Source of the DNA: a virus
Lineage: Duplodnaviria > Caudoviricetes
Reading direction: 5' to 3' (one strand)
Length of the DNA stretch: 49,211 nt
IMG/VR virus record: IMGVR_UViG_3300002098_001910
Span: 1-49,211 of that record
The notes below the pieces were generated by a model. The model did not search any database. It saw only the letters and a program-made list of their open reading frames with translations, and was not told the DNA's origin. Position 1 is the stretch's first letter. Every line of letters begins with the position of its first letter. A program made the translations under genes and the position numbers. Shown piece by piece: positions 40,553-49,211 of this stretch.

Positions 40553-41266
40553 TTGAAAATGATACCAATGACCTTCGGAACAATAAAATCCATAATAGAA
40601 AAAAATCTTCTTGAATCTTATAAAGACGAGAAAGAATTCAAGAAATTATTAAGAGAATTTAAACAAAACGTTTTAATGAATAAATCTATGTCGAAAATTT
40701 ATTCATTATATAATCAATTAAATTCACCACAAGAATTATCAGAATCTGACGCTAAAGAATTTTTACAAGAAGGAGTACATTTAATTCAAAAATTATTACC
40801 GAATATCAAGCTTCCAAATACTATTTCTAAGGAGATAGATAACAAATATTCCGATTTAGATACAATTGTTTATTTAAATAAATTAAATTTATCAGAAAGA
40901 TTACAATCGAAAAAAAATCTTATTAAAGTCCTAACTTCAAGTAGTACTACAATCAAAGAATCTATAAATATTCCTGTTAAATCGATGGTTAGTATTGCAA
41001 ATCAAACATTAAGAAATTATATAGAAACTATGGATGAGAATTCTAAAAAAGAATTTTTAGAATTAATATCTGAAGATTCACAATCTTTGGAAACTAAGTT
41101 TGAAATAATTCGTGAAAATACAATAAGTAAACTTCAAAATATTTTAGAAAAAGAAGAAGAATTTGAATTAAAAACTAAGTTATCCGAAACAATAGATAGA
41201 ATTAAAAATGAAAAATTCGACCAATTTAACTTTTTAAAGTTAAAAAGTTTAGAAGAATCTATTTAA
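40553..41266 (+). CDS. Head-module hypothetical protein
   Basis: Between portal and protease; TATTTAT upstream. Confidence 0.7.
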   Translation: MKMIPMTFGTIKSIIEKNLLESYKDEKEFKKLLREFKQNVLMNKSMSKIYSLYNQLNSPQELSESDAKEFLQEGVHLIQKLLPNIKLPNTISKEIDNKYSDLDTIVYLNKLNLSERLQSKKNLIKVLTSSSTTIKESINIPVKSMVSIANQTLRNYIETMDENSKKEFLELISEDSQSLETKFEIIRENTISKLQNILEKEEEFELKTKLSETIDRIKNEKFDQFNFLKLKSLEESI

Positions 41267-41448
41267 CTATTTTTCTGTTTCTGAACGTATATTGCCTTTA
41301 ATATTTTATTTCTGTTTTTAACAGAATCTTTCACATACTCTTTTCTTTCAAAAAGAATTTTATTTTGTTTAGTTTTAATAACTTTAGATTTTAAATTCTT
41401 TAAGGCTTTTTCTATGTTTTCGCCATTTTTTATTTCAATAATTATCAT
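41263..41448 (-). CDS. rpsU: Ribosomal protein bS21
   Basis: I.IK.GENIEKALK..K.K..KTK....L.ERKEY.K.SV..R....KA.Y, the Bacteroidota-type bS21 pattern. Confidence 0.9.
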   Translation of the reverse strand: MIIIEIKNGENIEKALKNLKSKVIKTKQNKILFERKEYVKDSVKNRNKILKAIYVQKQKNS

Positions 41449-46734: not shown

Positions 46735-47931
46735 ATGATTAAGCAAACATGGAATATTGGTGTTAAAGAAAAATTAAGAATTCTTAATTTACATGAAACT
46801 GCAACTAAAAACCAATATCTTATATTAGAACAAAAAGAGGTGGTAACAAAAAAAATTGAAATTGGGAAGCCGATAACTTTTAATTTACCAAATACATTTG
46901 CTAGTGGTCAATATAAAATTACTAACACAATATCAATAGATTCTGCTATAAATCAAATTAACAATTATGTAAAACAATATCCATTAAACTCTAAATTTGA
47001 GGTGATAATAGAATCATCAGAATCTAAAGTTCCGAATACAGGAGTTGGATTAAATCCAGGAGATTTATCAAGATTGAGGGCTGAAGAAATTGAAAACTAT
47101 ATAAATGGTAAAATACCAAAAAGTGTAGTACCAAAAATTGAAAATAAGGGAGCTCAAGGTCCAGAATGGAATCCTAAATTAGGTTCTAATAATTCAATAT
47201 ATACAGAATATCAATATGTTAAATTAATTTTTTCAATTTCAGGTGAAAAAGAAAATATTGAGACAAAAATAATTCCTGTAAATTGTAATGTATCTGCAAA
47301 AAATACAGGAGGAGGGGTCATACCATCATCTAAAGATTTTACACAAGTACAAGAATGGGATTTAGGAGAAGGGGAAGGCCAAATTTATTTGTGGTATGAA
47401 ACATATGAAATGCCAGATATCATATATTTTGAGTATAATGGTAAACCTATACATACCCCAATTTTTGCTGGTTCTCAAAAAGATGAATATAGAATTTTTG
47501 TTGGTGTTTCTCTTTTGGCAAAATATAAAGGTGGAGCATTGCCAGCACAATTTGGTGAATCTCAATATAAAAAATTAAAAAATACTGATAGTGTGATTAT
47601 AAATTCTTTACCTGCAATGAAAAAATGGGGATTATCAAAATCTTTTGATAATACATTTGGAAAAGGACAGGAATTTGATAATCCTAATTATATGAATTCT
47701 TTTATAAAGTATGATAATAGTGATGGTAAAGTAAGGGATGGTAAAATATTAATTAAAGAATTAGGTGAAGATTTCCCTTGGGGGTATTTATCGTCTAAAA
47801 TGGGTCCTACTCTTGTTAAAAACATTGGTCCTATCAATAAAAAAATGGGTGTTGATAAAATTAAAGTTATTAACGTCAGCCCTAACGGAACTACTAAATG
47901 GTCTATTGGGGGAACTTGCAATCCATTCTGA
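46735..47931 (+). CDS. Putative virion protein with OmpA-like domain
   Basis: N-terminal EK.RIL.LHE; F.SG...I..S.S.V...LS..RA......I...QYV; TATTTAT upstream. Confidence 0.6.
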   Translation: MIKQTWNIGVKEKLRILNLHETATKNQYLILEQKEVVTKKIEIGKPITFNLPNTFASGQYKITNTISIDSAINQINNYVKQYPLNSKFEVIIESSESKVPNTGVGLNPGDLSRLRAEEIENYINGKIPKSVVPKIENKGAQGPEWNPKLGSNNSIYTEYQYVKLIFSISGEKENIETKIIPVNCNVSAKNTGGGVIPSSKDFTQVQEWDLGEGEGQIYLWYETYEMPDIIYFEYNGKPIHTPIFAGSQKDEYRIFVGVSLLAKYKGGALPAQFGESQYKKLKNTDSVIINSLPAMKKWGLSKSFDNTFGKGQEFDNPNYMNSFIKYDNSDGKVRDGKILIKELGEDFPWGYLSSKMGPTLVKNIGPINKKMGVDKIKVINVSPNGTTKWSIGGTCNPF

Positions 47932-48487: not shown

Positions 48488-49116
48488 TATTTTGAATATG
48501 TGTTATCTAATATTTATTTTACCGTACAATCTATTTTGTTATTTTGTCCTGAGATTGTTTCTAACTTGTAATTTAATATTCTTTTAACTCGATACCATAA
48601 GTGGTATGATAATAGGTAGTTGTATCTACCTCGTAATTTAATACTTCTTCTACCTAGTCATATTCAGTACCGATTTCTGTAATCGTTGTATCTACCTTGC
48701 AATTTAATACTTCTTCTACCGGATGCCTATGGGAAAAAAGATATTGATATGTTGTATCTACCTTGCAATTTAATACTTCTTCTACCTTCCCCTTTCCAAA
48801 AACGCCTTCTACACAAGTTGTATCTACCTTGCAATTTAATACTTCTTCTACCTTATCACCTCTAGGAAGAGTTGGCAGTGCAGTTGTATCTACCTTGTAA
48901 TTTAATACTTCTTCTACCGCTCCATTCAAACTGGGGAATATTGAGTTAGTTGTATCTACCTTGCAATTTAATACTTCTTCTACCTCATCGTCCAGTAATT
49001 GTTTAACATCATCAGTTGTATCTACCTTGCAATTTAATACTTCTTCTACCTCACTGGTAATGTGATGAAATAAAAACCGGGTTGTATCTACCTTGCAATT
49101 TAATACTTCCTCTACC
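48488..49116. CRISPR. CRISPR-like array: 8 near-identical 36-nt repeats (48619-49116), 2 degenerate repeats (48554, 48488), nine 30-nt spacers
   Basis: Repeat GTTGTATCTACCTTGCAATTTAATACTTCTTCTACC at 48619, 48685, 48751, 48817, 48883, 48949, 49015 and 49081 (exact 66-nt period); spacers are unique. Confidence 0.88.
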
Positions 49117-49211
49117 CATTCAGACATAATCTGTTCATATTCTTTCATATCTAATGAAAATAATTGAAAAAAATATCTAAAAAATTCCCATCTCCAGTAT
49201 AATTTTCCTGT
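48654..49211 (-). CDS. Gene (5'-truncated by the window edge) whose C-terminus is encoded by the array
   Basis: The frame is open from the window edge: ...TGKLYWRWEFFRYFFQLFSLDMKEYEQIMSEW, then [VEEVLN(C/Y)KVDTT + variable 10-mer] x7 to TAG at 48654-48656. Confidence 0.75.
   Translation of the reverse strand, partial: TGKLYWRWEFFRYFFQLFSLDMKEYEQIMSEWVEEVLNCKVDTTRFLFHHITSEVEEVLNCKVDTTDDVKQLLDDEVEEVLNCKVDTTNSIFPSLNGAVEEVLNYKVDTTALPTLPRGDKVEEVLNCKVDTTCVEGVFGKGKVEEVLNCKVDTTYQYLFSHRHPVEEVLNCKVDTTITEIGTEYD

Follow-up and report, generated by a model that had tools for sequence, protein, structure and literature searches.

An array of nine 36-nt repeats with eight inserts lies at one end of the window (by which we mean the whole 49,211-base stretch of viral DNA analysed here) and forms the 3' end of a conserved gene of jumbo phages. 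Comparison of arrays across the family of this gene shows that units are gained beside the gene with duplication of 36 nt and are lost internally, and sequence matches identify a minority of the inserts, about 10 of 426, as pieces of Bacteroidota-type genes lying in either orientation and in any frame. We consider it likely, with a probability of roughly 0.6, that the type II-C Cas1-Cas2 of the host takes 30-base pieces of its chromosome and writes them, in frame, into a phage gene predicted to be early, whose product would acquire random peptides. The wider proposition, that jumbo phages of lake Flavobacteriia use host CRISPR adaptation as a writer of peptide libraries and that the peptides are selected against host targets, we hold to be slightly better than an even bet.

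A repeat array forming the 3' end of a jumbo-phage gene

The window is a viral record estimated to be 16% complete, with a GC content of 28.8%. It contains a T4-like head-gene block, whose genes were named from translations read by eye, and within this block a gene for an S21-like ribosomal protein (41263-41448, minus strand; E = 1.7e-4, below the curated cut-off). Freshwater phages with bS21 have predicted hosts in the Bacteroidetes, mostly Flavobacteriia (PMC9723584), and the head-gene block together with the reverse-strand S21-like gene fits an assignment of the window to this group. Those phages have genomes of about 300 kb with a reverse-strand bS21 gene inside a terminase-portal-protease-capsid block, to which the arrangement in the window is a candidate parallel; the present gene family and its arrays are not mentioned in the accessible portion of that paper. 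Neither the window nor the phage records G001, G006 and G007 contain the tetramer GATC, suggesting strong avoidance of a restriction site. A 398-aa gene that follows the capsid gene (46735-47931, plus strand) gave a weak OmpA-like match (E = 0.042).

Eight of the repeats are near-identical (0-2 mismatches), and the ninth, which was missing from the initial annotation of this DNA, is degenerate (Table 1). That annotation had described 36-nt repeats and 30-nt inserts making up a 66-nt unit, and had read seven translated peptides from them; seven inserts of 30 nt were recovered with all seven peptides as quoted, and an eighth, presumably the oldest, measures 29 nt. On the minus strand translation can proceed without a stop from the window edge across six inserts, and the frame ends at a TAG on the junction of insert 7 and repeat 8 (48654-48656). 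Nothing of note was seen in 48488-48553. The window repeat is itself open in four of the six frames, and with bacterial spacers as the model six open units would be expected by chance with P = 0.022 for this frame and 0.127 for any frame; the open frame of this single window is modest evidence and could be due to chance.

Contigs from all four runs break at the array. In X1 and X3 the position 48655-48684 is occupied by a different insert, stop-free when read by hand. The same two runs revealed a second paralogue at window 49089-49123, with nearly the same repeat and at similar depth. A repeat-only contig of X3 reached a depth of 2075, as against 84 for the flanking DNA, suggesting many repeat copies in that sample. 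Exact searches of viral contigs with the window repeat, and with the cores of window inserts 2 and 1, gave no matches.

Table 1. Features of the array and of the gene that ends in it
Feature	Position	Strand	Remarks
Whole open frame in window	48654..49211	-	185 aa, 5' end open
Gene body, 3' part	49117..49211	-	cut by window edge; occupies the CRISPR-leader position; full body about 81 aa before repeat
Repeat 1	49081..49116	-	the gene's own last 36 nt, VEEVLNCKVDTT; putative integration site
Insert 1	49051..49080	-	presumably newest; RFLFHHITSE; donor not found
Repeat 2	49015..49050	-	
Insert 2	48985..49014	-	DDVKQLLDDE; borderline donor matches only
Repeat 3	48949..48984	-	
Insert 3	48919..48948	-	NSIFPSLNGA; donor not found
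Repeat 4	48883..48918	-	one change, C to Y
Insert 4	48853..48882	-	ALPTLPRGDK; also in contig of run X2
Repeat 5	48817..48852	-	
Insert 5	48787..48816	-	phage reading CVEGVFGKGK; matches 30 nt of Flavobacteriales ileS
Repeat 6	48751..48786	-	
Insert 6	48721..48750	-	YQYLFSHRHP; donor not found
Repeat 7	48685..48720	-	
Insert 7	48655..48684	-	ITEIGTEYD; TAG made with first base of repeat 8
Repeat 8	48619..48654	-	2 mismatches; past stop
Insert 8	48590..48618	-	29 nt, presumably oldest; past reading frame, stop-free in first-position frame
Repeat 9	48554..48589	-	degenerate trailer repeat, 10 mismatches
Repeat sequence elements singled out			GGTGGAAGAGG and ACAAC

The frame upstream of the array is a real gene, since the locus P0001 has a body 100% identical to it, with one different insert and a short second repeat, and L082/G001 supplies the start codon and the first 81 residues, ending at the first base of the repeat. 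A profile search with the gene body recovered 420 representatives at E<=1e-3, and most of the top matches end in 22-residue units; in the close relatives L003 and L004 the gene is missing at this site. The initial annotation had held that the gene-proximal repeat simply continues an ordinary gene body and that coding sequence fills the leader position; both points are borne out by these homologues, the upstream frame neither closing nor lacking relatives, and a conserved gene body stands where a non-coding AT-rich leader would be. AlphaFold2 predicted a confident small domain (pLDDT 88), in which the repeat takes in the final part of helix 3, then a turn, then the beginning of the last strand, which runs on into the insert; the next repeat opens a helix. 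Pfam, PHROGs and the ESM Atlas yielded nothing usable for the array protein, its best matches among solved structures were uninformative (Z 4.4 at best, rmsd 2.9-3.8 over 56-84 residues), and viral structure models returned uncharacterised relatives only. Collections of cultured phages and plasmids contained neither a family member nor a donor.

Preservation of the reading frame and polar growth of the arrays

At least 55 viral loci were fetched, along with 78 metagenome loci from the best 80 of 335. After duplicates, short or truncated matches and matches without the motif were dropped, 277 profile matches gave 203 distinct genes, 157 of which have two or more repeats. The arrays were walked on DNA irrespective of stops. 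Among 335 non-redundant inserts with good flanks 322 are exactly 30 nt long, comparable to 390 of 452 in bacterial arrays. None of these 322 has an internal in-frame stop at its nine inner codons, whereas 98-157 of them do when any of the remaining five frames is read; the family sequences are related, and the counts are of non-independent events. The only junction stop among the 30-nt inserts is that of the window. Of 384 bacterial spacers flanked by similar repeats, 156 contain a stop in that frame, so that the inserts depart far from the random rate of stops which the initial annotation had named as a reason to abandon its view. The frame extends to the last repeat in 117 of the 126 complete arrays with three or more repeats. 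Homologues of the gene also carry 36+30 arrays whose repeat follows each one's own protein sequence, as the same annotation had anticipated. Stop recoding was considered and dropped, the genes being read intact under table 11.

In a wider superfamily set of 312, obtained with an iterated profile, a 66-nt period was found in 146 and a period of 64, 65 or 67 nt in 19, while 8 are cut off and 139 have no second repeat at the threshold. In a separate count, 13 of 146 first inserts differ from 30 nt, and a frameshift just past the first peptide is therefore tolerated. The expectation that units be divisible by three thus holds for the bulk of the inserts (322 of 335), but not for these first ones. 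Inserts that now lie past a stop or frameshift have a stop in the first-position frame in 1 of 12 cases, a small sample which fits purging while an insert is the newest. In downstream repeats we counted 229 synonymous, 291 non-synonymous and 0 nonsense changes, the expected shares being 0.28, 0.69 and 0.03; this synonymous excess, with the lack of nonsense changes, suggests some protein-level constraint on later units too. Synonymous sites within the repeat are also constrained: in a set chosen for active arrays and related by descent, GTG is used in 60 of 63 Val codons, as against 35 of 120 in the body.

There are 2-13 profile matches per record; with the iterated profile, the number of superfamily ORFs was 15 in one complete genome and 10 in another. 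At the loci L147, L177, L186, L145 and L151 about 3 to 6 paralogues follow one another in tandem, and every one of them has a short array to itself. The repeat peptides are different (VENTLQMKVTNT, VEEHYKLEVTTT) in sister subfamilies, which occur at L167:2347-2950, L191, G007 (L241:1009-1503) and G006:274809-275041; the first inserts of these subfamilies are often 29 or 31 nt long, the protein ending a few codons later, and we infer their products to be late and virion-packaged. A TATTTAT motif precedes the start in 25 of 40 VENTL-type genes, and many distant members start with an MKYLITE-like leader.

Growth of the arrays is polar. In 125 array pairs with a common insert, which are related and non-independent, the first insert is common in 9 and the last in 55; within orthologue groups the corresponding figures are 17 and 46 of 76 arrays. 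Private inserts concentrate at the gene end, and repeat mismatches climb from 0 to 6.8 along the array. No order inversions were seen in 214 comparisons and no insert was duplicated inside one array in 548, which supports the earlier suggestion of gain at the gene-proximal end. Internal unit losses are common, and 11 of 423 inserts are found in more than one gene group.

Donors of the inserts and relatives of the repeat

The inserts are almost certainly captured foreign DNA. They show no relationship to one another, their nearest-neighbour distances being near those that shuffles give, and their natural k-mer biases make random non-templated synthesis unlikely. Their GC content is 42% (0.416 observed, 0.412 simulated, as against 0.32 in phage DNA), and 9 of 322 contain GATC, which is missing from the phage records examined. 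A simulation that draws pieces of Bacteroidota-like DNA in random frames and discards those with stops fits these properties, with some excess of sense in-frame pieces. Capture solely from sense in-frame coding DNA was rejected, the estimated share being about 0.45, compared with 0.98 in an all-sense control and 0.27 for random pieces.

A search of the window array against 401 Flavobacteriales genomes gave 12 matches, 11 of them on insert 5 (in 11 of the 401 genomes). The best aligns at 28 of 30 nt with ileS in a shifted frame. In 9 of 10 loci checked the match falls on the same site of one large gene, with 2-5 mismatches, and two of these donor genes that were tested both proved to be ileS; in the closest matches the gene itself encodes LCRRRFWKGE at this place, in a frame that is shifted by one base relative to that of the phage. 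Insert 2 matched a 941-aa Flavobacteriales protein at 23 of 30 nt and 8 of 9 aa in a shifted frame, a borderline case for which a phage protein gives a similar score, and its 6 weak matches in 261 genomes, with 8-12 mismatches over the insert, were not convincing. With a query that included intergenic DNA, 401 genomes of the G026 genus returned 17 matches, none placeable on an insert.

We then compared 426 inserts with 2.0 of the 2.59 Mb of genome G490, a stand-in for the host. Scores of at least 31 were reached by 13 inserts and of at least 32 by 9. At the same two thresholds shuffles gave 0.5 and 0, inserts that had been reversed or complemented gave 3 and 0, and a set of 411 bacterial spacers gave 1 and 0; chance may explain about 1-3 of the 13 matches. 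The donor genes include ileS, rpoB, metK, rsmH, rpsH, rplM, two aldehyde dehydrogenases and an ABC-F ATPase, with 7 inserts in sense and 6 in antisense orientation and 4 in the phage frame. The remaining 413 had no donor at a score of 31 or more in the 2.0 Mb searched; only conserved donor genes are visible because this genome stands in for the host. Another 161 genomes included 2 with a match to insert 3 of L176 at 27 of 30 positions, and array L122 matched none of 161. No protospacers beyond chance level were found in the phage loci or genomes, and the 13 flanks in the stand-in genome displayed no PAM motif. The spacer-capture idea of the initial annotation gains from these results, the identified pieces being of Flavobacteriales chromosomal genes.

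Bacterial genomes were scanned for the 3' motif of the repeat at a 66-nt period, and the best 80 of 125 loci were studied; the matches listed are mostly Bacteroidota arrays, and among 23 hand-picked loci Cas13b scored over the cut-off in 14. At positions not covered by the motif searched for, the phage repeat matches bacterial repeats, mostly of VI-B type, at 10.5 of 23 positions, compared with 6.2 for shuffles, and its ACAAC end corresponds to the leader-distal GTTGT of II-C and VI-B repeats. The 36/30 geometry had already been pointed out as typical of these types, with which the relationship to Cas13b repeats agrees. Phage and bacterial arrays mostly agree as to which end decays. No cas13b was found beside the array, its neighbours encoding 62 aa (L082), 139 and 398 aa, as against more than 1,000 aa for Cas13b, and no cas family matched the 139- and 398-aa proteins. 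By the features tested, the array grows like a CRISPR array and is not part of a CRISPR-Cas immune system.

Proposed mechanism, alternatives and known systems

The Bacteroidetes -7 promoter element TAnnTTTG (PMC6847099) lies 3-12 nt before the ATG in 46 of 114 subfamily genes, as against a background of 1.7%, and also in L082, which points to early transcription by the host polymerase. In the gene studied here the body stands in the place of a leader, before a repeat resembling those of Cas13b (VI-B) arrays, and we propose that on this repeat the host Cas1-Cas2 would act in trans during infection, using fragments of the host chromosome. Inserts would be taken from Bacteroidota-type genes in any frame and either orientation, a unit being gained next to the gene by a 36-nt duplication and others being lost internally, and the predicted early protein would grow at every such event by 22 residues, 12 from the repeat and 10 forming a random peptide. 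Selection would presumably remove stop-containing inserts when they stand first in line, and would account for a pattern that is itself observed. With several paralogues, each having its own array, the outcome would be a renewable peptide library on a small folded domain, the peptides likely binding or evading host factors early in infection. On balance we favour such adaptive use, because about 40% of events would be lost to stops, paralogues are many and there is little or no phage DNA among the inserts. The peptides look random, with no clear position-specific preference, which counts against the model in that a tight binding function might leave one; so does the tolerance of frameshifting first inserts.

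The host II-C Cas1-Cas2 is the likeliest candidate for the writer, and a probable one in our judgement, because no integrase was found in the phages. Neither a Cas1 over the cut-off nor a reverse transcriptase (RT) was detected in 20 phage records, three of them complete, and neither Cas2, Cas4 nor II-C Cas1 in 5; cas1, cas2, cas4 and RT genes were those that the initial annotation had proposed to look for. A weak Cas1 match of 13 bits in G006/G015 was discarded, as it sits in an unrelated-looking 586-aa ORF. A phage-encoded integrase or recombinase of an unrecognised kind could perform the same capture; it would account for a repeat that varies with each gene and for the limited occurrence of Cas1 in Flavobacteriales genomes (56 of 251), a figure that counts as well in favour of a host enzyme. 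Cas1 is missing from all 5 genomes tested among those with the ileS match, which are stand-ins and not the host, and many conserved phage proteins belong to no family. We nevertheless regard a phage enzyme as quite improbable, given that no integrase family occurs among the 113 scanned of 163 shared phage proteins, and that the arrays agree with those of II-C/VI-B type in geometry, in the spread of lengths, in polarity and in the GTTGT end. The two complete genomes do have in common a PD-(D/E)XK exonuclease (L250:5161-6012 in G007, with an orthologue in G006), which speaks for a phage contribution and might possibly supply host DNA fragments; it has a single cysteine and hence no Cas4-type four-cysteine motif.

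A different objection accepts capture and takes the peptides as passengers of a decoy or tolerated Cas1-Cas2 site, stops being purged merely as the protein needs some tail. The near-random peptides without positional preference, the tolerated frameshifted tails and the many sites per genome would suit it, as would the report that a Cas4-like protein of a Campylobacter phage pushes II-C acquisition toward host DNA (PMC4283603). We think it unlikely: a protective sink should hold phage DNA, but 0 of 426 inserts score 32 or more against phage proteomes and their composition is unlike that of phage; a non-coding decoy would escape the loss of events to stops; and the stop-free inner codons and the pattern of changes in downstream repeats also tell against it. 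Were the array instead to act as RNA, be it a Cas13b guide, a decoy or an antisense regulator of host mRNA, with the protein secondary, the VI-B-like repeat in the VI-B transcription direction and the essential host genes among the donors would find an explanation. Such a role is very improbable, as the predicted repeat hairpin is weakened (median -4.1 vs -9.2 kcal/mol, a few family repeats reaching -9.2 and the window repeat having -1.1), donors are split between sense and antisense, and an RNA role leaves the absence of stops in 322 inserts unexplained; the dual RNA and protein function entertained in the initial annotation loses ground with the hairpin and the donor orientations. A further view has it that this is a repeat protein of the usual kind, in which recombination in the constant pieces does no more than reshuffle existing peptide cassettes and no new DNA enters; the common internal losses and the inserts found in more than one gene group are what it predicts. 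The matches to bacterial housekeeping genes out of frame or antisense, the strict order, the lack of duplicates and the private inserts at the gene end make it scarcely tenable, and reshuffling is largely refuted as a source of new inserts, though it stands as a route of loss and exchange.

Under the preferred reading, writing by host Cas1-Cas2, the closest parallel is the VI-B array of Flavobacterium columnare, which according to the accessible part of PMC8092290 is filled in trans by II-C Cas1-Cas2, the two repeats sharing mainly the leader-distal GTTGT. The phage arrays resemble it in the 36-nt repeat, the mostly 30-nt inserts, the leader-distal GTTGT, a related repeat sequence, polar growth, a degenerate trailer repeat and the lack of local cas1/cas2; they differ in the coding leader position, in-frame units, weakened hairpin, identified inserts from host-type chromosomal genes, and the lack of any cas gene found in the phage. 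The Campylobacter II-C case (PMC4283603) likewise has host-derived spacers during phage infection, but there, so far as the available sections of the report go, spacers enter the host's own non-coding array, and a Cas4 family match was found in 0 of 5 of the present phage records. Huge phages have compact Cas-less arrays with host-like repeats and some spacers targeting bacteria (PMC7162821), similarly short and in genomes without acquisition genes. In the accessible text of that study the arrays are treated as sources of guide RNAs and translation is unmentioned, whereas the present repeat lies within a folded protein domain, differs between paralogues and is accompanied by a purging of stops. 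Its tables, or those of PMC9723584, may list such arrays as ordinary CRISPRs.

We found no description of a translated, acquisition-built array in the full-text literature searched, which consisted largely of openly available main texts. Diversity-generating retroelements also bring about targeted, repeated diversification of the C-terminal region of a phage protein, by means of an RT, a template copy and adenine mutagenesis. The present system shares the repeated, targeted change of such a region, but RT is found in 0 of 20 records, there is no template copy in G006, G007, G001 or the window, and foreign 30-mers are inserted with site duplication in place of adenine mutagenesis. CRISPR adaptation is known as the writer of a non-coding immune memory; here the insertions would extend a protein, with the reading frame as the object of selection. 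If true, this would be a means of targeted protein diversification that differs from retroelements, from invertases and from recombination cassettes. It would let one observe directly how new peptide sequence arises, under selection, from DNA that is out of frame or antisense, and the inserts would form an ordered record of the hosts infected by an uncultured phage. The approximately 50 natural repeat variants (48 distinct) would map the needs of the integrase, bearing on the acceptance of divergent repeats by II-C Cas1-Cas2 (PMC8092290), and the process, if reproduced in the laboratory, could be a template for continuous in-cell peptide diversification.

Several bacterial loci with VI-B-like 36/30 arrays have other noteworthy features. 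Large ORFs without a match to the Cas13b model adjoin such arrays at L315:8793-12221, L286:8045-11752, L279:1502-4600, L285:1344-4586 and L257:899-4488, and are possibly divergent or split effectors. In Thalassospira genomes (L284, L302, L297, L277 and L266) there are several arrays with this type of repeat and the 36/30 geometry, and the one neighbouring protein tested, of 518 aa in L302, matched no family. Arrays beside TnpB-family genes (333 and 410 aa) were encountered at L288:4931-5929 and L318:2416-3645, in a Patescibacteria and a Phycisphaerae assembly.
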